In this document: positions 32,083-62,237 of the stretch, in pieces
How the letters are laid out: each line of letters begins with the position of its first letter
Numbering within the stretch: position 1 is the stretch's first letter
DNA from: Candidatus Latescibacterota bacterium
Lineage (GTDB): Bacteria; Latescibacterota; UBA2968; UBA8231
Reading direction: 5' to 3'
Length of the DNA: 64,000 nt
Assembly: GCA_965206595.1 (NCBI GenBank)
Contig: OZ242214.1
Span: forward strand, 2,912,001 to 2,976,000
The notes under the pieces: model-generated
The model's input: only the letters and a program-made list of their open reading frames with translations
The model's database searches: none
Told to the model about the DNA's origin: nothing
Made by a program: the position numbers and the translations under genes

Positions 32083-33177
32083 ATGCAAACCAAGAAGCAG
32101 ACGCAACTAGACGTTGTATCCAGGGTCAGATCCAGGCATGACTTGCGGTCCAAGGACGTCTGCGAGGCCGTCGGAAACGATCTGCTTTTACTGGATCTCA
32201 TCGAAACTCCAGCGTTCCAGCGTTTGAAAGATATCCGATTCCTCGGAGCTATTGATTACCGTCTGATCTCTTCGCCAAATGGAAAACCAGGGGCAATCAG
32301 GTACACTCGCTACGAGCACAGTCTTGGAGTCGTTCGGTTGGCAAGCATGTACTGCGCAAGCCAGGAAATGCCATCGGCTGATCAACGGTTGGTTTGCGTT
32401 GCGGCCTTGCTCCACGACGTCGGACATCCTCCGCTGTCACATTCGATGGAATCCGTCTTCAGGGAGAAATGCAGTATCGATCACCATAGAGCGACGGAAG
32501 AAATAATCCGTGGCCGAGTCTCTCTGGGCGAAATGGTCTTTTCAACGCTTCGACGCCATGGTGCAGATGTGGATAGGTTAATCGCAGTTATTTCCGGTGA
32601 ATGTACGGAGTTCCATGGTTTCTTTAACGGTCCAATCAGTTTCGATACCATCGAAGGCATTCTTCGTTCTTTCCGTTATACCCAAAAAACTCCTACTACC
32701 CCGAATCCAGACAGCGTAACGTTTGCTGCCATAAGACGAACAGCCTTACAAGACCGGGTAATGGTTGATGAGTTCTGGCAGACCAAAAACCTCGTTTATA
32801 AGACCATTGTCAATTCACGAGAGGGGATTCTTTCAGACTTCGCATGCCGGCTCTTCCTGCTGCGCAATCCTGAGTACATTAATCTCGAATATTACTTTGC
32901 AACTGAGGCCAGGTTGTTTCGGAAACTGCCGGGTTTGAGAAAGCTGCTGATAAGTAGCTCGTTCGAGGAGGAAATTACGAGAATGATTGATGAACCTGTC
33001 CGTTATTGGTATCGTGATTACTATATTGATCAAAAGGGTGACTTCTTTACTCGGCAAGACAGTGTCCGTTACCGGCATAGTCGCAATATAGCCACTTTGC
33101 AACTCAAGGATTGGTCTAGGTTGGCGACCACGGAAACCGATTTTCAAGGAGGGTTGTTCGATGACAACCGCCTATGA
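32083..33177 (+). CDS. HD-domain phosphohydrolase (SAMHD1/dNTP triphosphohydrolase-like)
   Basis: FQRLKDIRFLG, TRYEHSLGV, ALLHDVGHPPLSHSME; low GC. Confidence 0.9.
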   Translation: MQTKKQTQLDVVSRVRSRHDLRSKDVCEAVGNDLLLLDLIETPAFQRLKDIRFLGAIDYRLISSPNGKPGAIRYTRYEHSLGVVRLASMYCASQEMPSADQRLVCVAALLHDVGHPPLSHSMESVFREKCSIDHHRATEEIIRGRVSLGEMVFSTLRRHGADVDRLIAVISGECTEFHGFFNGPISFDTIEGILRSFRYTQKTPTTPNPDSVTFAAIRRTALQDRVMVDEFWQTKNLVYKTIVNSREGILSDFACRLFLLRNPEYINLEYYFATEARLFRKLPGLRKLLISSSFEEEITRMIDEPVRYWYRDYYIDQKGDFFTRQDSVRYRHSRNIATLQLKDWSRLATTETDFQGGLFDDNRL

Positions 33178-34093
33178 GCGCAATTTTGAATATTCCGGAA
33201 ATACCCTTGCCCAAATCAGAAAGCATTTTAAAGAGAATGAACTTGGCGATAAAATACTTGTGGTATGCGGTTCATATGCTCGACGGGAGGCTTCCAAGAA
33301 CTCGGATATCGATTTTTTCCTAATTTCTGGCGACACAACCGAAGATGCTTCGTTAATCCATACTGTAGGATCTGCCATCAGGGAAGTCGTACCGCACGCA
33401 TCGGCAAAAAATGGACCTTTTCAAGGAAATGAAAACAGCTCCGAGATGCTTCGAAATATCGGGGGTGAAAATGACGACAACCCGAAGCTTACCCGTCGCG
33501 TACTGCTTCTTCTCGAAGGCGAATGGTTGTTCAATGAAAAAGGGCTTAGAGATTTTCGGCGAAAGATCCTCGAGCACTATATCCGGGACGAAATGAAAGA
33601 TCAGATGTTGGCGCTGTTTTTACTCAATGACATCATCAGGTACTACCGAACCATTGCCGTAGACTATGAATTCAAGACCTATGGAGGTGAAGACCCAAAG
33701 CCCTGGGGTATACGAAACATAAAACTGGTTTTTTCAAGAAAACTTCTCTATGCCAGTGGTTTGTTTAGCATTGCCATGACAGCCGACCGCGCGAGAGATG
33801 TTAAAATCTCATTACTGGAAGAATTGCTCGCCCTTCCCGTAATTGAACGAATGAAGTCGATATGTGGAGAATCCGAAATAGATCCCGGTCTGAGGAGTTA
33901 TAACCTCTTTCTTGAAAAGCTTGCCGATCCCAAGGTCCAGGATTGTTTGAATAAACTACAGCACTCAGAACGTCAAGACCCACTTTTTCGGGAACTTAAA
34001 AACGAGGGACATCAGTTCACTCGTCAATTGTTGAAACTATTTGAGAACACATTTGACTCTACTCATCCGATTCGACGGGCCGTAGTATTCTAA
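33161..34093 (+). CDS. Pol-beta-superfamily nucleotidyltransferase
   Basis: GSYARREASKNSDIDF (GS..DxD); TRRVLLLLEG; FLLNDIIRYYRT; overlaps the HD gene by 17 bp. Confidence 0.88.
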   Translation: MTTAYERNFEYSGNTLAQIRKHFKENELGDKILVVCGSYARREASKNSDIDFFLISGDTTEDASLIHTVGSAIREVVPHASAKNGPFQGNENSSEMLRNIGGENDDNPKLTRRVLLLLEGEWLFNEKGLRDFRRKILEHYIRDEMKDQMLALFLLNDIIRYYRTIAVDYEFKTYGGEDPKPWGIRNIKLVFSRKLLYASGLFSIAMTADRARDVKISLLEELLALPVIERMKSICGESEIDPGLRSYNLFLEKLADPKVQDCLNKLQHSERQDPLFRELKNEGHQFTRQLLKLFENTFDSTHPIRRAVVF

Positions 34094-53522: not shown

Positions 53523-53964
53523 ACATGTCAATAGCCGGCAGGGCCGCCCGGCACGCCCATACCGTACCTCGGCAGGCTAATGGACCGCTGAACCCGCCGA
53601 ATTCTGGTAGCGGCACCCTGTAATGGCGATTATCTCGCCGGCGCGGCCGCGCTTGCGCCAGGGTTACGTCCACCGGCTCCAGCACCCGGACCCCATTCAT
53701 CCGAGGATCTCGTCACCATGGCTCCGCAAAGGTAAGCCGGCACGCCGCCATGGGCCTGCGAGCCGAAGCCCGCGCGCAGCCCCGTCCCGACTTCACCCTG
53801 TTCGTGCCCCGAGGAGGGGGGCTATGGAAAGCCCCATGCCCGGCGCCGGAAGCAGCCGTACCACCTCCTGGGCCAAGGCTGTGAGGCCACGGGCACTGCC
53901 GGGAACGGACCCCTGGTCGCCCGAGGCGACAGTGCACCATCGAAATCAATTGGGAGCTGAGTTC

Positions 53965-56900
53965 ATGAAGGCGGCAATCATCTGTTCCATCGCCCTGCTC
54001 GGGTCTTTCGGCCATGCAGAAGCCCAGACCCTGGTCGAGGGCCGGGTGCGGCTGGCATCGGGCCAACCCGCGGCCGGGGCCCAGGTGCGGTTGTTCGATC
54101 TGTCCGATCTGCGCCGCTCGCTGGCAGCCACGGCCGACGAGACCGGGTACTTCGCCCTTCCCTCCGGGGCCCTGCGGGGGCCCGCGGCCGGGGGCCTCCA
54201 CCTGGGGCCGAACTACCCCAATCCGTTCAACCCCTCCACAGTCATCCCGTTCCACCTGCCGGCCTCGACGCCGGTGCGGCTCGAGGTCTTCAACCTCCTC
54301 GGGCAGCGGATAGCGATCCTGGTCGACGGGGAGCTGACGGCCGGCTCTCACACGGCGACCTGGAACGGCACGGACGCCGCCGGGCGGCCGCTGGCCGCGG
54401 GGGTCTACCTCTACCGGCTGAGCTATCCCGGAGGGACGGGGACCGGGTCGATGGTGCTGACCGACGGGCGGGGCGGTACTCCCGGCGCTGGCGGGGGCGC
54501 GCCTGCCGCCGCCTCCGGGCAGACCGCGGAGTCCGCCCAGGTGTACGGGCTGACGGTCTCCGGACCTGGCCTGGAGACCTTCGTCGACCCGGCCTTCCGG
54601 GTGGAGGCCGGCATGGCCCCGGTCGACCTCGTAGTCGAAGCGCTCGACAGCAGGCCCCGCGGCAAGGCGGCGGCAGCCTCCGGGCTGTTGGGGGACGTCG
54701 ACAACAGCGGCCTCGTCGATATCGTCGACGCCCTGCTCCTCGCCATGTACAGCGCCAACCCCTCCATCGTCATGCCGAACGGCGGCGACATCTCCCTGGG
54801 GGACGTCAACCAGGACGGCACGACCGACTTCACCGACGCCTGGCTCATCGCCAGATACAGCCTCGATCCCTCCGATCCTCTGCTTCCCCCGGGGATCGGG
54901 GAGCCGGTGGCGCCCCCCGCGGCCCTGTCGCCGGACCCGTCCACCGTCGAGTTCGGGAACGACGGCGCCTGGCACGCCTTCACGGTCCAGGCCGGCAAAC
55001 CGGTCGTGGTCGTGGCCAACCCGGGCGAAGATCTCCCGCTGGTGGAGATCAGCGCCAGGAGCACCCGGTCCAGCTTCTGCCCCGCGGAAGCCGGGGACGC
55101 CGTATCGACCGAAGACGGCAGCTCCATCTACCTGTCCGGGTGCGAGGCCGGCACCGGCACGGTCGAGCTGCGGCGGGCGGAGGACCAGTCGGTCCTGCGG
55201 ACCTACACCATCGAGATCGAGGACACCGGCGGCAGCCCCCCCGACCTCGTCGTCGACCTCCCTGCGGTCAGCGACAGCAGCCTGAATACCGGACAGTCCT
55301 TCACCCTGAGCGTCACCGTCCGCAACGAGGGGGAGAAGGACTCGGAGGCGACCACCCTGCGCTACTACCGCTCTACGAACCGAACGATCTCCAGCTGGGA
55401 TACGGAAGCCGGCACCGGGGCGGTGGGTGCTCTTTCCGCGGCCGGCACCGGCACCTTGTCGATCTCCCTGACCCCACCGGCGAGCCCGGGAACCTGGTAC
55501 TACGGCGCCTGTGTCGAGAGCGTCAGCGGCGAGGGGAACACGCGGAACAACTGCTCCCGCGGGGTGCGGGTCAGCGTCGGCAGCGCCGACCTGATCGTCG
55601 AGGCCCCTGCGGCCAGCGACGCCAGCCCGGACGCCGGGGCGGCCTTCACCCTGAGCGCTACGGTCCGCAACCGAGGAGACAGCCGCTCGACCCTGACGGT
55701 GTTGCGCTACTACCGCTCGGATGACGCCGCGATCTCGACCAGCGACACTCAGGTCGGGACCGACGCGGTGAGCTCCCTTTCCGCCAACGGCACCAGCGCC
55801 GAGTCGGTCCGGTTGACCGCGCCTCCGAGCCCCGGAACCTGGTACTTCGGCGCCTGCGTCAGGCCGGTGCCGGGAGAATCCGACACCGGGAACAACTGCT
55901 CCGAAGCGGTCGAGGTGACCGTCGCAAGCTCCGACCTGGTGGTCGAGTCCCCCGCGGTCAGCGACAGCAGCCCGGAGACCGGGGCCTCCTTCACCTTCAG
56001 CGCCACGGTCCGCAACCAGGGCAGCAGCCAGTCCGCCTCGACCGTGCTGCGCTACTACCGCTCGCAGGACGCAGCGATCTCCACCAGCGACGCACAGGTG
56101 GGAACCAACGCGGTGGGTGCCCTCCCCGCCTCCGGCACCAGCGCCGAGTCGATCTCCCTGAGGGCTCCGGCGAGCCCGGCAACCTGGTACTACGGGGCCT
56201 GCGTTTCCCCGGTTTCAGGGGAATCCGATACCGGGAACAACTGTTCGTCCGCGGTGGAAGTAACGGTCACGGCCCCGGAGCCTCGGCTCTCGAAGTTGTA
56301 CTGGACCGACTGGGGCACCGACACGATTCGCCGCGCCGATCTCGACGGCTCTCAGGTGGAAGAGCTGGTAACCGGAGCCGGACTGGAGGGACCTGACGGG
56401 CTGGTCATCGACGCGGCCGGCGGCCGGATGTACTGGACCGACGCCGGCACGGCCAGAATCCAGCGGGCCAACCTCGACGGCTCCCAGGTGCAGGACCTGG
56501 TCACTTCCGGACTCACCATCCCTGCGGGGATTGCCCTGGATACGGGTGCCGGCAAGATGTACTGGGCCGACGCCGGCACGGGGAAAATCCAGCGCGGAAA
56601 CCTCGACGGCTCGGGAGTCCAGGACCTCGTCACACGCGACGACGGACTTGCCTTTCCCACAGGATTGGCGCTCGATCCGGCGGCCGGAAAGGTCTACTGG
56701 ACCGACCCCGGCACCGACAGGATCCAGCGCGGAAACCTCGACGGCTCCCAGGTGCAGGACCTCGTTACCAGCGGGATCGACAATCCATCGGCGATCGCCC
56801 TCGATTTGAACGGGGGCAGGATGTACTGGACCGACCGCGGCACCCGGAAAATCCAGCGGGCAAGCCTCGATGGTTCCGGGGTGGAAGACCTGGTCGCCAG

Positions 56901-57087
56901 CGGCCTGGATCTTCCCGGTGGGCTGGCGCTGGACCTGCGTGGCGGAAAGATGTACTGGACCGACCGGGGCACCGGAAAGATCCAGCGGGCAAACCTCGAC
57001 GGATCCGGGGTCGAGGACCTGTTGACCACTGCCGACGGGCTGGAGCATCCAACGGGGCTGGCCCTGGCTGCGGAACCAGGGAATTGA
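53965..57087 (+). CDS. Large secreted modular protein: FlgD-Ig-like domain, dockerin, 3x CARDB-like Ig, YWTD (LDL-receptor class B) propeller
   Basis: Signal MKAAIICSIALL; NYPNPFNPST; GDVDNSGLVDIVDA; three DLVV..FTLSATVRNxG..YYGACV..NNCS modules; six YWTD/YWAD repeats. Confidence 0.9.
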   Translation: MKAAIICSIALLGSFGHAEAQTLVEGRVRLASGQPAAGAQVRLFDLSDLRRSLAATADETGYFALPSGALRGPAAGGLHLGPNYPNPFNPSTVIPFHLPASTPVRLEVFNLLGQRIAILVDGELTAGSHTATWNGTDAAGRPLAAGVYLYRLSYPGGTGTGSMVLTDGRGGTPGAGGGAPAAASGQTAESAQVYGLTVSGPGLETFVDPAFRVEAGMAPVDLVVEALDSRPRGKAAAASGLLGDVDNSGLVDIVDALLLAMYSANPSIVMPNGGDISLGDVNQDGTTDFTDAWLIARYSLDPSDPLLPPGIGEPVAPPAALSPDPSTVEFGNDGAWHAFTVQAGKPVVVVANPGEDLPLVEISARSTRSSFCPAEAGDAVSTEDGSSIYLSGCEAGTGTVELRRAEDQSVLRTYTIEIEDTGGSPPDLVVDLPAVSDSSLNTGQSFTLSVTVRNEGEKDSEATTLRYYRSTNRTISSWDTEAGTGAVGALSAAGTGTLSISLTPPASPGTWYYGACVESVSGEGNTRNNCSRGVRVSVGSADLIVEAPAASDASPDAGAAFTLSATVRNRGDSRSTLTVLRYYRSDDAAISTSDTQVGTDAVSSLSANGTSAESVRLTAPPSPGTWYFGACVRPVPGESDTGNNCSEAVEVTVASSDLVVESPAVSDSSPETGASFTFSATVRNQGSSQSASTVLRYYRSQDAAISTSDAQVGTNAVGALPASGTSAESISLRAPASPATWYYGACVSPVSGESDTGNNCSSAVEVTVTAPEPRLSKLYWTDWGTDTIRRADLDGSQVEELVTGAGLEGPDGLVIDAAGGRMYWTDAGTARIQRANLDGSQVQDLVTSGLTIPAGIALDTGAGKMYWADAGTGKIQRGNLDGSGVQDLVTRDDGLAFPTGLALDPAAGKVYWTDPGTDRIQRGNLDGSQVQDLVTSGIDNPSAIALDLNGGRMYWTDRGTRKIQRASLDGSGVEDLVASGLDLPGGLALDLRGGKMYWTDRGTGKIQRANLDGSGVEDLLTTADGLEHPTGLALAAEPGN

Positions 57088-57756
57088 TCTGGTCCCGTCA
57101 GGAGCTTTTTCAGAACGAGATGAACCCTGGCTCCACCTATACGAGACCTGATGTCCGGGAATGGTTGCGCAAGGCCGCCGTCACCGAAGCCGCGGAGATA
57201 GCACAGGGGCTGGTACGAAAGATTGCAGAATCGTGGCATTGGACACTGCGACCCCCTGCCTCAAGCATCGAGATCCCAGTCGAAGGACAACGCGGAAATT
57301 GAACTGATGGTGCCGGTCAGCGTTCCGTAATGGGACGACTCTCCGGGTTCAAGTATCGAGAAGTCTTTGGGCGGCTTCGATATTTTAAGCGCAAGCTTAC
57401 CCTCTTGCGGTAGGCGCTTAAAGAATCTTCAGCTTCAGACGGCCATATGGCGTCCTTGCCGGACATGCGGGGCCGCCACTACCAGAACATTGAAACTCTC
57501 CCAGGCTCAGCGGCCAGGTTTTGTCCCCTTGCACTTATGCCTTGCCCTCCAGCCAACTGCCCGTCAATTGCAGCTTTACAGCAATCGGCTGCATTCCCAT
57601 GCAGGTCAGGCATTGAATCCTGTCGATTCGAAGCACGCTGAATGGTGTCGGTCTATGAGCCGGCCTTTCTGATTTACGGTTTCGATCTCCAGATTGCGTT
57701 TGACGCGCCGCACGCGTCCTGACTAGGATACAGGCCATGCAAAAGGTGAACCCTGC

Positions 57757-59115
57757 ATGGTAGCCAAAGGTGTCACGATGCTTCGATCCCTTTCCCTTGT
57801 CCTGATATTGACCGCACTGGCTGCGCCGGCTGTGGGGCAAACCGTCCCCACCGCAGCCGCAGAAACCGACACAACCGACGTCTACGAGACGCGGCGCAAT
57901 CACGTGCTCGCCTTCCCGAAGTACGTCTGGAACGCCCTGGTTTTCCCGCTCGGCAAGTTCACCATCTGGCTCGAGCGGAAAGAGATTCCCCAGCGGTTGA
58001 TCGAGATGTTCACCTTCCAGGACATCTTCGAGCTGTATCCGAACGCGACCCTGGGTGGAGAGACGGGAACCGCCGGCGGCATTTCCTTGCTTTACACCGA
58101 TCTGTTCGGACGCGGCAAGGGGATCTCGACAAGCTTTATCGCCAACCCCTCCAACTACAGCGGACTCGTCCTGTTCGAGGACCCGGGGATCGGGGGCGGT
58201 CCCTGGTACTGGAGCGCCACACTCGAAGCGCTGAAGACGGGAAATGAGGACGCCACCATTAACGGCGAGTTGCGCAGGTCCGGGTCCCTGCTCGATCACG
58301 AACGGAGAGATACCAGAATTTCTTTTGGGCGCCGCACCAACTACGGCGTGACCGAGGGGTACGAACCGGATGCGGTCCTCGAGCTGCGGCTGTCCCAGGG
58401 CTTCCGCAAGTTCGCCGCCGCCGATTTCGACCCCGGCGACTTTCCCGGTCTGAACGAGGCGATCAACCTGTTCTCCGTCGGTGGCATGGCCGCTTTCGAC
58501 GACCGGGACTTCAAGCCGCCGACCGCCTCGATCCGCCTGCCGCTGAACTACCAGCTGCCCGGGCGGGTGCTGCTTTTCGCCGACGACCGCTACTACAGCT
58601 TTCGCGACACCGCCTTCCCGGAGCACGGCGGGCTCGCGCGCATCGAGGCCGATTACGCAACTGGCTCCAATGACGTCCGGTATTTCCGCTACTCAGCGGA
58701 GCTTCAGCGCTTCTTCACCCTGTTCTTCAGGAACCGCATCCTCGGTGTCAGGGCCCGGCTCGAGAAGGCGCACGCCCTGGGAGACGGCAGCCTCATCCCC
58801 TATTCCGACCTGCCCACTCTGGGCGGGGATGGGCAGTTGCGCGGGTACCGGCGCGGATTCTTTCGCGACAAGGGCAGCCTGCTGTTGAGCGCCGAATACC
58901 GCTACCCGATCTGGGACACCTGGAACGCCGTCCTCTTCTGGGATGAAGGGCAGGTGTTCGACAGGTACGGCGACCTCGAAGCGGGCGGGTTCGAGTACAG
59001 CTTCGGCGCCGGAATCAGCGTGCGCACCGAGCGTTCCTTCCTGTTCGGGCTGCGCATCGCCCACAGCAAGGAGGAGAAGGCGTTGACCGGCTTCTCGCTG
59101 GAAAAGGAGTTCTGA
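57757..59115 (+). CDS. Omp85 (BamA/TamA-family) outer-membrane barrel without evident POTRA domains
   Basis: Signal peptide; LGGDGQLRGYRRGFFRDK..AEYRYPI lid motif; C-terminal Phe. Confidence 0.88.
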   Translation: MVAKGVTMLRSLSLVLILTALAAPAVGQTVPTAAAETDTTDVYETRRNHVLAFPKYVWNALVFPLGKFTIWLERKEIPQRLIEMFTFQDIFELYPNATLGGETGTAGGISLLYTDLFGRGKGISTSFIANPSNYSGLVLFEDPGIGGGPWYWSATLEALKTGNEDATINGELRRSGSLLDHERRDTRISFGRRTNYGVTEGYEPDAVLELRLSQGFRKFAAADFDPGDFPGLNEAINLFSVGGMAAFDDRDFKPPTASIRLPLNYQLPGRVLLFADDRYYSFRDTAFPEHGGLARIEADYATGSNDVRYFRYSAELQRFFTLFFRNRILGVRARLEKAHALGDGSLIPYSDLPTLGGDGQLRGYRRGFFRDKGSLLLSAEYRYPIWDTWNAVLFWDEGQVFDRYGDLEAGGFEYSFGAGISVRTERSFLFGLRIAHSKEEKALTGFSLEKEF

Positions 59116-60788
59116 TGAGTTCCCCGCAAGCCGCCATGCTGCTGGTCCTTGTGCTGTTGTCGCCGATCGCCGGCGGGGCCGTCACGGAGCTGACCACCGA
59201 TCCCGTCAAGTGGTTCGACGCCGACAACAAGCCGACCCCCGAGCCGGCCGAGGCCAAGGAGAACAAGGTCTGGGACTTCATCGACAAATCCTCCTTTTAC
59301 CAGGTCGGCAAGGTGCTGGACCTGGGGTGGACCGGGCGCCGGGTCGGAGACCTCCTCGGAATCGTAGGGCCGCGCCAGGCCGACAACGTCAACGCCCTCG
59401 ACGAGGTCCCCAACTCTTCCTGGTTCACCAACCGGCACTTCCTGATGCCGATGACCCTGGAAGAGCTTGCCGAGGGACCCGGCTTCGCCGAACCGGACGA
59501 CAGCGGACCCTGGGAGGTCGTCGCCGGCAAGTTCGAGGGGATCACCGCGGGCTTCACCATCAAGGACGCCTCGAAGCGGTACTTCCTGCTCAAGTTCGAT
59601 TCCGAAGGGAACAACGAGATGGGTTCCGGGGCCGAGGCGGTCGTCACCAAGGTGCTGTACGCCGCCGGCTACAACGTTCCGCTCAACTCGGTGGTCTACT
59701 TCGATCCCGGACAGCTGCAGATCGGCCCGAAGGCCAGGGTGCCGGCGAAAGAGGGCGGCAAGCGGCCGATGACCCCGAAGGATCTGCAGAAAATCCTCGA
59801 CCACATCGCCCCGGAGCCGGACGGCACCCTGCGCTGCCTGGCCAGCCAGTTCCTCACGGGCAAGCCGGTCGGCGTCTTCAACTACAACGGCCGCCGCGGG
59901 GACGACCCCAACGACCGGGTCGACCACGAGCACCGGCGCGAGCTGCGGGGGCTGCGCGTCATCGGCTCCTGGCTCAACGACGCCGACCGCCGCGCCGCCA
60001 ACACCCTTGACATGTACGTGACCGAGGACGACCGCCGCTACGTCCGCCACTACCTGATCGACATGGGCTCCGCCCTCGGCAGCGGCAGCTGGAGACCGCA
60101 CCAGCCCAAGCACGGCAACGAGTACATGGTCGACCCGCGCACGATCTTGCGTTCGCTCGTATCGCTTGGGTTCTACATGAAGAAGTGGGAAGAGCCGGTG
60201 CCGATGCCCTACATCTCTCTCGGCTATTTCGAGAACGAGACCTTCCGTCCCGGGGACTGGGTGCCGGACTATCCCAACCCCGCGTTCGAACGCTGCACCA
60301 ACCGGGACGGGTACTGGGGCGCCAAAATCGTCATGGCCTTCCGGGACGACGAGATCCGCGCCATGGTGGAACGGGGGCGCTACTCGGATCCGGGCGCGAG
60401 CGCGGAGCTGACCCGGCTTCTGGCCGAGCGCCGGGACATGATCGGGCGCTACTGGTTCGAGCGCGTCAACCCGCTGGATCGCTTCGAAGTCGGAGACGGC
60501 CGGCTTCGCTTCGTCGATCTCGCCGTGGAGGGGGGGCTGGTGCCGCGCGCCTCGCGGCAGTGGCGGTATGCTGCTATCGATGCAGACGGGGACCGGATTG
60601 CCGATCCGCGGGTTGTAGCCGAGCCGGTCATCCCGATCGGCGAGGAGGCGCAACCCGGGCAGTTTTTCGGCTACCGGATCCGGAGCCGCAGCGGCGAGAG
60701 CGGGAAGTGGAGCAAGGATACCACGGTGTTTCTCTACAAACACGAAGACGGCCGCCTGCAACTGGTGCGGATCGAACGGGAGGAGTAA
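59115..60788 (+). CDS. Exported atypical kinase-fold protein (HipA/PI3K-like motifs)
   Basis: N-terminal signal peptide; YFLLKFD (Lys), EAVVTKVLYAAGYNVP (Glu), WLNDADRRAANTL (DxxxxN), YLIDMGSALG (DFG-like). Confidence 0.7.
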   Translation: MSSPQAAMLLVLVLLSPIAGGAVTELTTDPVKWFDADNKPTPEPAEAKENKVWDFIDKSSFYQVGKVLDLGWTGRRVGDLLGIVGPRQADNVNALDEVPNSSWFTNRHFLMPMTLEELAEGPGFAEPDDSGPWEVVAGKFEGITAGFTIKDASKRYFLLKFDSEGNNEMGSGAEAVVTKVLYAAGYNVPLNSVVYFDPGQLQIGPKARVPAKEGGKRPMTPKDLQKILDHIAPEPDGTLRCLASQFLTGKPVGVFNYNGRRGDDPNDRVDHEHRRELRGLRVIGSWLNDADRRAANTLDMYVTEDDRRYVRHYLIDMGSALGSGSWRPHQPKHGNEYMVDPRTILRSLVSLGFYMKKWEEPVPMPYISLGYFENETFRPGDWVPDYPNPAFERCTNRDGYWGAKIVMAFRDDEIRAMVERGRYSDPGASAELTRLLAERRDMIGRYWFERVNPLDRFEVGDGRLRFVDLAVEGGLVPRASRQWRYAAIDADGDRIADPRVVAEPVIPIGEEAQPGQFFGYRIRSRSGESGKWSKDTTVFLYKHEDGRLQLVRIEREE

Positions 60789-60791
60789 AAA

Positions 60792-62237
60792 ATGGAACTT
60801 GCGGGGTTCGGGTTCTTCCAGGGTTTCATGCACTACCTCGGCGTGCTGCAGTGGCCGCTGGTCGTCGTCTTCCTGCTTTACATCGCATGGCAGATAAGGG
60901 GTTTCGCACCGGAAGAGCGGCTGCAGACCGGCCTGATGTTCTCCTACTTCTTCCTGGTGATCACCACCTTCTGGATCCTCAAGCCGATCAAGAAGGGGCT
61001 CTTCATCGGCTACTACAAAGGGATCGGCGGCTTCGACCTGCTGGGCTGGCAACTCGACGCGGCGCAGGCGGAGCTGCTGGCCAAAGTCCTCAACATGGCG
61101 GTCGCCGCCGCGGCGGTCGCGGTCTTCACCCTTCTCGCCCGCTCCTTCCGGCGCCAGCAGCTCACCTTCATCCTGTCGGGCTTTTTCATCCTCTGTTACC
61201 TGGCCTTCAGCTTCCTCCTGGACAATGCCGGGGGCGGCACCGTCTGGACCTTCTACCTGTTCGGAGACCTGTTCAGCACGTTGATGGTCGCCACTTTCTT
61301 CGCCTTCCTCAACGACAGCGTCGATCCTTCCTCCGCCAAGCGGCTCTACGGGCTGATCGGTCTCGGGGGGGTTTCGGGGGGCTTCTTCGGCAGCGCCGTC
61401 GTCGGCGTCAACGTCAAGAGCCTGAGCCCGGCGCTGTCCATGTGGTTGTGCCTGGCGATCGCCGTCGCCATCGCCCTTATCGCCATGGCCGCGGGCCGGG
61501 TGGTAAACCGCAAGTTGGCGGCGAATGAAACCGGGGAAAGCAAGGCGGAGGAAGCATCCGATTCCCAAGCGGCCCCGGCTGAGGATCAGCCGCAGGGCAA
61601 TCCGGCATGGGAAGGTGCGCGGCTCGCTCTGCGCTCCCCTTACCTGCTGTCGGTTGTGGCCATCGTCGGCCTATACGAGATGGTCTCCACCATAATGGAT
61701 TTCCAGTTCACCTCCACGGTGCTGCACTACCTCGACGGCCCCCAGATCGGCGAGCATTTTCCGCGCGTGTTCACGTTCACCAACATGGTTGCGCTGGTCG
61801 TTCAGCTGTTCCTGACGAGCTTCGTGATGACCCGCTTCGGCGTCGGCCCGGCGCTGCTGTTCCTGCCGGTAGCAGCTCTTCTGGGTTCGGCAGGCTTCCT
61901 GATCGCCCCGGTGCTCCTCCTCGGAAGTTTGCTGAACACCACCGACAACGGCTTCAGCTACTCGATCAACCAGTCGGCCAAGGAAGCGCTCTACGTCCCC
62001 ACCACGCGAGACGAGAAGTACAAGGCCAAGGCTTTCATCGACATGTTCGTGCAGCGGTTCGCCAAGGCACTGGCCGTCGGCCTGAGTCTCCTGATAACGA
62101 CGCTCTTCGCAGGGTATTCGAGCATTCGCTGGCTGTCGCTGATAACCGCGGCCATCCTGCTGCTGTGGATCCTCGCCGCCCGTTACGCAGGACGAACCTT
62201 CCGCGAGAAAGAAGAAGCGGCTGCGCAGTCTGGGTAA
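60792..62237 (+). CDS. Npt1/Npt2 (TLC) family ATP/ADP nucleotide translocase, MFS fold
   Basis: ILKPIKKGLF, AKRLYGLIGLGG, YSINQSAKEALYVP..KYKAKAFIDMFVQRFAK; about 12 TM segments. Confidence 0.88.
   Translation: MELAGFGFFQGFMHYLGVLQWPLVVVFLLYIAWQIRGFAPEERLQTGLMFSYFFLVITTFWILKPIKKGLFIGYYKGIGGFDLLGWQLDAAQAELLAKVLNMAVAAAAVAVFTLLARSFRRQQLTFILSGFFILCYLAFSFLLDNAGGGTVWTFYLFGDLFSTLMVATFFAFLNDSVDPSSAKRLYGLIGLGGVSGGFFGSAVVGVNVKSLSPALSMWLCLAIAVAIALIAMAAGRVVNRKLAANETGESKAEEASDSQAAPAEDQPQGNPAWEGARLALRSPYLLSVVAIVGLYEMVSTIMDFQFTSTVLHYLDGPQIGEHFPRVFTFTNMVALVVQLFLTSFVMTRFGVGPALLFLPVAALLGSAGFLIAPVLLLGSLLNTTDNGFSYSINQSAKEALYVPTTRDEKYKAKAFIDMFVQRFAKALAVGLSLLITTLFAGYSSIRWLSLITAAILLLWILAARYAGRTFREKEEAAAQSG

Follow-up and report, generated by a model that had tools for sequence, protein, structure and literature searches.

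A 64,000-nucleotide stretch of the genome of a Candidatus Latescibacterota bacterium (contig OZ242214.1, positions 2,912,001 to 2,976,000; here called the window) carries, close to its 3′ end, three adjacent genes coding for an Omp85-family outer membrane barrel (gene 1), an exported kinase-like protein (gene 2), and a nucleotide transporter (NTT) of the NTT/TLC family (gene 3). We found that this locus represents, in its minimal version with three genes, a widespread cell envelope module that has had no earlier description. Each of its parts comes from a known superfamily; it is their conserved combination that is new and has no described bacterial counterpart. The best reading of the module, which we hold tentatively, is that the transporter exports ATP to a kinase working outside the cytoplasm; the direction and the substrate of transport, as well as the kinase activity, are predictions only.

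RESULTS

Gene 2 codes for a putatively exported protein with a HipA_2-like kinase core

The protein encoded by gene 2 was matched by no family in Pfam or NCBIfam. It belongs to a large family, since more than 4,210 of the 8,000 candidates scored were matches, and all the named ones are annotated as "hypothetical protein." When clustered at 50% identity, 2,920 representatives of the family were found at an E value of ≤0.001, and 821 of those were below 1e-30. We then used an alignment of 140 sequences, consisting of the window protein, 13 chosen matches, and 126 of the 150 listed representatives; the other 24 were dropped because their lengths fell outside 480 to 620 amino acids (aa).

The original prediction had read four HipA/PI3K-like kinase motifs, in order, in this protein, and these were located as K160 in LLKFD, E174, D291-RRAA-N296, and I315-D316-M-G318. 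Among the 140 members, K160 is kept in 130, E174 (as E or D) in 130, D291 in 135, N296 in 133, and D316 in 134. In the spacing of the catalytic residues across the family, the Asn lies 5 positions after the first Asp and the second Asp lies 20 positions after the Asn. Some twenty other positions show a conservation of 95% or more, and a family-specific charged insert, DDPNDRV.HEHRRELR, is found directly before the catalytic loop.

For the profile comparison, a HipA_2 profile (PF20613) was built from 30 proteins of another phylum, since a search of 151 genomes of the host phylum detected no HipA_2. As revealed by hhalign, the 140-sequence profile matched this profile with a probability of 96.3% and an E value of 1.9e-9 over 147 columns, with aa 135 to 321 of the window protein placed on HipA_2 positions 14 to 160. 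The two Gly-rich loops were aligned with each other, as were K160 (LLKFD) with YVlKF of HipA_2, E174 with ElI, NDADRRAAN (D291 and N296) with N.DRt..N, and LIDMG (D316) with lIDHG. With the core alone, the score was 80.5 (probability, 97.3%; E value, 2e-11); none of 201 column shuffles reached it (maximum, 20.2), and two unrelated controls scored 13.0 and 11.8. A HipA_C (PF07804) profile of 22 sequences yielded a weaker, co-linear match (E values of 0.0017, for the N-lobe, and 0.00079; reached by 0 of 251 shuffles), in which the catalytic loop was covered by a second segment, and single-sequence HipA templates were nonsignificant in hhalign (E values of 0.11 and 0.47). In the ESM Atlas, a confident model of a homolog has a predicted template modeling score of 0.86, and the nearest named clusters by features, which serve as leads only, are all atypical kinases (Fam20C, HipA_2, CotH, PI3/PI4-kinase, and LepB_N; scores of 0.78 to 0.82), the FJX1 and Fam20C clusters lying at 0.78 to 0.81.

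The HipA_2 profile alignment and the conserved motifs together indicated that the motif reading was right. By its sequence, the core of the gene 2 protein is thus of the HipA_2-type, protein-kinase-like kind, with every residue required for Mg-ATP binding and phosphate transfer conserved, and the protein as a whole is a remote homolog of HipA-type kinases that belongs to neither of the two Pfam families.

A signal peptide had also been predicted for this protein. In a heuristic reading, its N terminus, MSSPQAAMLLVLVLLSPIAGGAV, shows a hydrophobic stretch followed by an AGG/A-type cleavage region. By the same heuristic, a hydrophobic N terminus is present in all 139 assessable family members, and a lipobox-like motif occurs in 53 of the 139.

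Several members of the family depart from this layout. In seven related genomes (G059, G113, G118, G071, G018, G043, and G066), the kinase-like gene is present only as fragments or as copies that are split or contain stops, which suggests repeated loss within the phylum. Long members also exist (P0234, P0249, and P0273 to P0280); P0234 and seven others have a C-terminal extension in which no family was recognized, its length being 200 to 600 residues in several members of 740 to 1,180 aa. In P0251 (955 aa), a GT4 glycosyltransferase is followed by a membrane or lipobox segment and then by the kinase-like domain; this protein may represent a genuine fusion that spans a membrane segment, or else a merge produced by gene calling.

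Gene 1 codes for a POTRA-less barrel and gene 3 for a divergent nucleotide transporter

The gene 1 product matched the Pfam family Omp85 (PF01103) at aa 279 to 424 with an E value of 6.8e-16 (59.1 bits against a cutoff of 24), and no other Pfam family was matched at an E value of ≤0.1. All 20 orthologous partners matched Omp85 as well, and POTRA families matched none of these 20 barrels at an E value of ≤1, in agreement with the earlier view of gene 1 as an Omp85 barrel lacking evident POTRA domains. Such POTRA-less ("noNterm") Omp85 proteins are a known class to which no function has been assigned. A profile of the 20 orthologs matched BamA barrels in the PDB (the best being 4k3c, with an E value of 1.1e-7), and its positions 299 to 380 were aligned with residues 585 to 667 of Escherichia coli BamA. 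In the loop-6 LRGY motif of the 20 barrels, R362 is invariant and G363 nearly so; motifs of the EYR(Y)P and FxDEGQ types are likewise invariant or nearly invariant, and the C-terminal residue is Phe in 19 of the 20 sequences. Against a POTRA profile of 25 sequences, the N-terminal 112 aa of the barrel scored 9.8 (E value, 0.34). The gene for a canonical BamA, which has POTRA repeats, lies 2.6 Mb from the locus; gene 1 therefore codes for an extra barrel, of the noNterm class.

Scores against the POTRA profile were 9.8 to 15.2 (E values of 0.035 to 0.36) for the N-terminal part of the barrel and for three parts (N-terminal, middle, and C-terminal) of the kinase-like protein, and a supply of POTRA domains in trans was rejected on this test.

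A second POTRA-less Omp85 paralog, 69% identical to gene 1, lies about 54 kb past the window (G000:C1:3027611-3028990; L131 5612-6991). No kinase-like gene follows it; a probable sulfatase gene and a BipA gene stand there instead, as judged from the sizes and order of open reading frames (ORFs) in comparison with the related locus L005. About 1 kb upstream of this paralog, a 23-residue remnant of a kinase-family C terminus was found (L131 4564-4632), and the relatives L003 and L005 hold an intact second barrel-kinase pair at the matching place.

The gene 3 product matched the Pfam family TLC (PF03219) with an E value of 5.7e-22 (78.6 bits against a cutoff of 21); MFS_1 was also matched. Its residues 150 to 472 were aligned with the solved "ADP,ATP carrier protein 1" (9j3n; E value, 4.8e-14), and the chloroplast carrier 9j3j was matched at an E value of 5.6e-11. 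The motifs AKR.Y..(F/I)G.G and KE..Y.P......K.KA.ID are common to gene 3 and the solved carriers. A hydropathy scan, which is a crude method, gave 14 peaks, three of them overlapping, to yield about 12 segments, together with a hydrophilic central loop. TLC matches were detected in none of 14 control genomes. The assignment of gene 3 to the Npt/TLC family has thus stood, but as a divergent, short subtype.

The barrel, the kinase-like protein, and the transporter are recurrent neighbors

Gene neighborhoods were surveyed at 106 loci, 26 from species-representative genomes and 80 from metagenomes, with the window's own loci left out, and neighbor genes were labeled by tblastn using several diverse queries per family. 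Dereplication at 95% nucleotide identity identified 17 loci as near-duplicates and left 89 groups. Upstream sequence of at least 1.3 kb was available for 87 copies of the kinase gene; the barrel gene was directly upstream in 78, and in 7 more it was separated by one intervening gene, which codes for a Metallophos protein where it was identified (5 of 7). No barrel was present upstream of 2 of the 87 copies, and a profile search confirmed both misses. After dereplication, 71 of 73 groups had an upstream barrel.

A TLC gene lay directly downstream on the same strand at 46 of the 80 loci with at least 1 kb of downstream sequence, and at 7 loci it was directly upstream of the barrel gene; taking all positions together, 64 of 96 assessable loci carry one. 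Where at least 5 kb of downstream sequence was available (n = 54), we counted a TLC gene at 44 loci, a phosphatase gene at 26, either of the two at 47, and a gene for a cyclic nucleotide monophosphate (cNMP)-binding protein at 21. Dereplication of these loci left 48, with TLC present at 39.

The arrangement of the genes varies. Barrel-kinase pairs are duplicated in tandem at four loci (L002, L004, L006, and L068); at L025 the TLC gene lies upstream with a DUF5329 gene between, L019 has a TLC-HEAT fusion alone, and L009 and many other loci carry a short TLC gene followed by a TLC-HEAT gene. The barrel-kinase-NTT combination spans Latescibacterota, metagenome-assembled genomes labeled Gemmatimonadota, Zixibacteria, Calditrichia, Balneolales/Rhodothermales, and Omnitrophota, and the Atlas extends the taxa of the family to Acidobacteriota and Myxococcota.

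We also clustered 850 neighboring ORFs without prior labels and scanned the cluster representatives against Pfam. This revealed a 143-aa cNMP-binding protein encoded directly after TLC-HEAT at 22 loci. Genes for Metallophos phosphoesterases occur at 22 of the 106 loci, located between barrel and kinase, immediately downstream of the kinase, or behind the cNMP gene, and PAP2 phosphatase genes are found in variable positions at 13 of the 106. A lipobox was present in all 10 Metallophos N termini inspected, indicating that these phosphoesterases are also extracytoplasmic. The active sites of PAP2 phosphatases face the periplasm.

One protein cluster, P0272 (981 aa; 4 contigs), combines a lipoprotein signal, a complete kinase-like domain, and a C-terminal Omp85 barrel in one chain, with neither a hydrophobic stretch nor a second signal sequence at the joint. 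It is the sole kinase-barrel fusion among the matches listed, and its closest relatives (71 to 82% identity) are unfused. This fusion supports a physical cooperation of the enzyme with the barrel. As to co-conservation and fusions, by which the original prediction had proposed to check the link, the three families therefore co-occur in several gene orders and phyla, and one fusion exists.

The kinase family and TLC transporters co-occur in genomes

In the sample of 151 genomes of the host phylum, for which the kinase/TLC intersection was compiled by hand, 23 genomes carry both the kinase family and TLC, 14 carry the kinase family without TLC, 5 carry TLC without the kinase family, and 109 carry neither. 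Fisher's test yielded a P value of 4e-13, which ignores kinship and overstates the case because the genomes are related. The kinase gene is present in each of the 19 genomes whose TLC, as read from open-frame lengths, is of the short or operon type. The host genome has exactly one kinase-family gene and one TLC gene, and the two are side by side in its 7 Mb. In G007, the kinase gene is 2.7 Mb away from a cluster of barrel, TLC, and TLC-HEAT genes, and both have been kept.

The gene surroundings in two genomes were recorded. The detached kinase-like gene of G007 (L135; G007:C1:4870000-4885000) is preceded by two genes for 7TMR-DISM sensor histidine kinases. In G041, which is free of TLC, the barrel-kinase pair (L134; G041:C1:4752000-4769000) is followed by genes for a PlpD-like patatin-Omp85 protein, a further Omp85-like protein, a DUF4956 protein, and a phytase-like protein.

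Layout of the locus and its genome setting

The features of the locus are listed in Table 1. The coordinates, the co-direction of the genes, the overlap of genes 1 and 2, and the spacer before gene 3 that had been predicted were all borne out by the ORF calls and the sequence. The stop codon of gene 1 overlaps the start codon of gene 2 (ttcTGATGagt, with TGATG at 59113-59117), and a 3-base gap (aaa) separates the stop of gene 2 from the start of gene 3, the sequence before position 60792 being gagTAAaaaATG. Gene 1 is preceded by a gap of 670 bases, and an MscS-like gene lies convergently 3′ of gene 3; the unit therefore consists of three genes. The promoter scan of the region found 1 site against 0.7 expected from shuffles, which is no evidence of function.

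TABLE 1 Features of the three-gene locus, numbered from the first nucleotide of the window
Feature	Position	Strand	Description
Gene 1	57757..59115	+	POTRA-less ("noNterm") Omp85-family outer membrane barrel, 452 aa; N-terminal signal sequence, C-terminal Phe
Gene 2	59115..60788	+	Kinase-like protein, 557 aa; signal sequence (aa 1-22), conserved N-terminal region, HipA_2-like kinase core, C-terminal part of ~235 aa without recognized fold
Predicted Sec signal sequence of gene 2	59115..59180	+	aa 1-22 (...SPIAGG/AV); heuristic sequence reading
Kinase core of gene 2	59517..60077	+	aa 135-321; Gly-rich loop, K160, E174, catalytic loop D291...N296 (nt 59985-60002), metal-binding D316 (nt 60060-60062)
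Gene 3	60792..62237	+	NTT/TLC-family inner membrane transporter, 481 aa; ~12 hydrophobic segments, short type without HEAT domain
Promoter-like site	57700..57729	+	TTGACG-18-TAGGAT; 28 bases before gene 1; weak consensus match only

The host, a free-living bacterium, is represented by a single contig of 7.05 Mb, and its nearest public relatives at the locus, labeled Candidatus Latescibacterota, show 92% protein identity. No Rfam family was found in the window. Two other regions of the window were noted. The stretch at 32083-34093 is low in G+C content (0.47 versus about 0.63) and contains two overlapping genes, one for an HD-domain protein and the other for a nucleotidyltransferase (NTP_transf_2), possibly acquired together as a small cassette. 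At 53623-57087, a large exported protein is encoded with FlgD-Ig, dockerin, and three CARDB domains as well as six LDL-receptor YWTD repeats. A giant CARDB/fn3 protein similar to it is encoded upstream of the barrel-kinase pair in G041.

DISCUSSION

We propose, as a possibility that is a little more doubtful than ATP export by itself, that free-living diderms run an ATP-driven phosphorylation cycle in the periplasm, in which an NTT exchanger, a Sec-exported HipA-like kinase at an outer membrane barrel, and reversing phosphatases cooperate and NTT-HEAT/cNMP proteins tune the supply. The kinase-like enzyme would act outside the cytoplasm, either docked to the barrel or passed through it at the outer membrane, and the NTT, as an obligate exchanger, would deliver ATP on the periplasmic side and take back the ADP made by the kinase. 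By the established thermodynamics of obligate exchange, a carrier of this kind, when ATP is present within the cell and absent from its outside, can run only in the ATP-out/ADP-in direction and needs an external source of ADP; a periplasmic kinase would be such a source. In the fuller modules, lipoprotein metallophosphoesterases or PAP2 phosphatases would reverse the phosphorylation, and the NTT-HEAT protein with its cytoplasmic cNMP-binding partner would regulate the nucleotide supply. The phosphorylated target could be an envelope protein, a glycan, or a lipid.

Several observations weigh against this proposal. In the text of PMC5381601, the NTTs that have been characterized are all importers, of parasites and plastids. 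Against the NCBIfam model for NTP/NDP (nucleoside triphosphate/diphosphate) exchange transporters, TIGR00769, gene 3 scored 68.9 bits, far below the cutoff of 387.2, so that it is a divergent family member and no recognized equivalog. The gene 2 protein, used as a single sequence or as a profile, had no match among PDB sequences at an E value of ≤10, and it was not recognized at significance by the HipA Pfam models: in HMMER searches of 33 family members, the best E values were 0.086 for HipA_2 (1 member) and 0.14 for HipA_C (2 members), and placement in this way fails. Among the dereplicated loci with 5 kb or more of downstream sequence, 9 of 48 have no TLC gene in the vicinity. No TLC match was obtained in 14 of the 37 kinase-bearing genomes, and in about half of these 14 the kinase gene is intact; G033, G041, and G074 hold such a gene without TLC in single contigs that are 98 to 99% complete. 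Conversely, the kinase gene is absent from 5 of the 28 TLC-bearing genomes, all five of which hold only the long HEAT-type TLC. The arrangement in G007 fits a conduit made of barrel plus transporter as well as it fits an ATP supply. Furthermore, the surveyed loci and genomes are related to one another, and the counts thus overstate their independence. On balance, the interpretation in the original prediction, in which the antiporter feeds an extracytoplasmic kinase, is partly supported: those of its refuting conditions that computation could address all turned out in its favor, in the kinase core with intact catalytic residues, the signal sequence, the wide co-occurrence, and the fusion, and its element of obligatory dependence was weakened by the kinase carriers that have no TLC.

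An unlikely explanation, yet the one that comes next, is a salvage of nucleotides or phosphate, in which the barrel serves as the way in through the outer membrane, external nucleotides or nucleic acid fragments are captured or processed by the exported kinase-fold protein together with lipoprotein phosphoesterases, and the NTT imports the products. This would be in line with nucleotide import by every NTT characterized according to PMC5381601, with the recurrence of Metallophos and PAP2 phosphatases in the module, and with the phytase-like and DUF4956 genes near the pair in G041; in G007, the barrel gene is directly beside the TLC and TLC-HEAT genes while the kinase gene is elsewhere, and the two NTT types of a locus could divide exchange from net uptake. 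A pure binding protein, however, would need no catalytic Asp, Asn, and Asp, which are kept in 133 to 135 of the 140 members, and an extracellular kinase step would still require a phosphate donor. Moreover, Omp85 barrels are not known as solute channels, free nucleoside triphosphates are scarce in sediments and soils, and the known targets of HipA-type and PI3K-type kinases are proteins or lipids, not nucleotides.

Less probable still is a type V-like secretion pair, in which the kinase-fold protein passes through the POTRA-less barrel to the surface or into the medium, where it acts on external targets or on those of neighboring cells, and the link to the transporter reflects another need or regulation. 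The locus does resemble TpsB/TpsA and PlpD, in that an Omp85 barrel adjoins an exported, cargo-like protein or, in P0272, trails it in one chain, and the passenger-then-barrel order of P0272 is that of PlpD. A gene for a PlpD-like patatin-Omp85 protein follows the pair in G041, and 53 of the 139 family members are lipoprotein-like. In Leptospira, noNterm Omp85 genes precede lipoprotein genes, and the authors of PMC11358297 propose that they serve in secretion. The differences are nevertheless considerable. TpsB has two POTRA domains and PlpD one, whereas the barrel here has none; unlike in two-partner secretion, no TPS domain was found; and the partner is a kinase-fold enzyme, in place of the adhesin, lipase, or toxin of TpsB- and PlpD-type systems. 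Two-partner and type Vd systems are defined by POTRA with a TPS domain or a fused passenger, and a fused passenger-barrel occurs here in one cluster only, P0272. We know of no two-partner or type Vd system that is linked to a nucleotide transporter. Such a pair would leave unexplained the tight link to a rare transporter, seen in the 19 of 19 genomes with short-type TLC that carry the kinase gene. An ATP-dependent enzyme on the outside would also lack its donor unless ATP were supplied, which leads back to ATP export.

Equally improbable is that the kinase-like fold carries out another chemistry or uses another cofactor, such as AMPylation, transfer from another nucleotide-derived donor, or a regulatory role, with the NTT carrying, for example, nicotinamide adenine dinucleotide (NAD), a nucleotide sugar, or 3′-phosphoadenosine-5′-phosphosulfate. 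As described in the text of PMC5381601, the substrates of some NTTs are NAD or other nucleotides, and one NTT moved none of the nucleotides tested. The low score of gene 3 against the ATP/ADP-exchanger model, the invariant charged insert peculiar to the family, and the union of a GT4 glycosyltransferase with the kinase-like domain in P0251 point the same way. Against these stands the full set of Lys, Glu, Asp, Asn, and Asp with kinase spacing, which is typical of Mg-ATP phosphotransfer.

Inherited synteny without any shared function was considered and rejected as highly improbable, since the association, many of whose loci come from related Latescibacterota with 17 of the 106 being near-duplicates, holds across gene orders, TLC subtypes, and phyla, holds where the genes are far apart on the chromosome (G007), and holds after dereplication, and since a kinase-barrel fusion exists.

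The proposed supply of ATP to an exported kinase was also compared with known systems that share one of its parts. The HipA proteins characterized so far are known as cytoplasmic toxins belonging to toxin-antitoxin systems. The gene 2 protein shares with HipA_2 and HipA_C a homologous core in which the Gly-rich loop, Lys, Glu, DxxxxN, and IDxG are aligned, and differs from HipA in its roughly doubled length, in the conserved regions at its N and C termini, in two inserts, and in an export signal. A HipB-type partner gene was found neither in the three-gene operon nor among the recurrent neighbor families checked; the conserved neighbors are Omp85, TLC, and phosphatases, and the export signal sets the protein apart from a cytoplasmic toxin.

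Compared with the NTTs of parasites and plastids, gene 3 is short and divergent, its host is free-living with a 7-Mb genome, and the proposed ATP-out direction is reversed. Major et al. (2017; PMC5381601) described the NTTs of free-living bacteria, and the pair of NTT-HEAT and cyclic nucleotide-binding domain proteins, as uncharacterized and speculated on ATP exchange between cells. The words export, kinase, outer membrane, and periplasm each occur 0 times in the text of that article, and relatives of our locus carry the same NTT-HEAT plus cNMP-binding arrangement. A kinase-like domain beside a PAP2 phosphatase, whose gene recurs here at 13 of the 106 loci, is likewise the make-up of a "phospholipid homeostasis" module of PAP2 and a PI-kinase-like protein, described in a preprint on new bacterial kinase-like families (bioRxiv 10.64898/2026.09.18.752743); that kinase, however, is reported to be intracellular and nonsecreted, and Omp85 and a nucleotide transporter are mentioned 0 times each in the preprint. 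Full-text literature searches found no description of the barrel-kinase-NTT combination, and the statement in the original prediction that no system of this composition had been characterized is so far upheld.

The closest analogy, a functional one, is the ATP/ADP exchanger of the endoplasmic reticulum (ER) and Golgi apparatus that feeds secretory kinases. The exchanger AXER (SLC35B1) reportedly supplies the secretory-pathway kinases Fam20C and FJX1 in this way. The logic would be alike, in that a kinase placed in a compartment without ATP synthesis is fed by an ATP/ADP exchanger of the membrane. The analogy goes no further than function: the transporter families are unrelated, and the system is eukaryotic.

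In the textbook view, the periplasm is free of ATP, and envelope processes draw their power from the inner membrane. NTTs, the "energy-parasite" transporters, are for their part widespread in free-living bacteria, in which they have no known role. The module ties these two puzzles together. If the proposal is true, it would be a bacterial counterpart of the exchanger-plus-secretory-kinase system of the ER and Golgi apparatus and would give NTTs of free-living bacteria their first function. The module also offers a first handle on an unannotated family of about 2,900 clusters (at 50% identity) and on the function of POTRA-less Omp85 barrels, and through it the question of ATP-driven chemistry in the periplasm becomes assayable.

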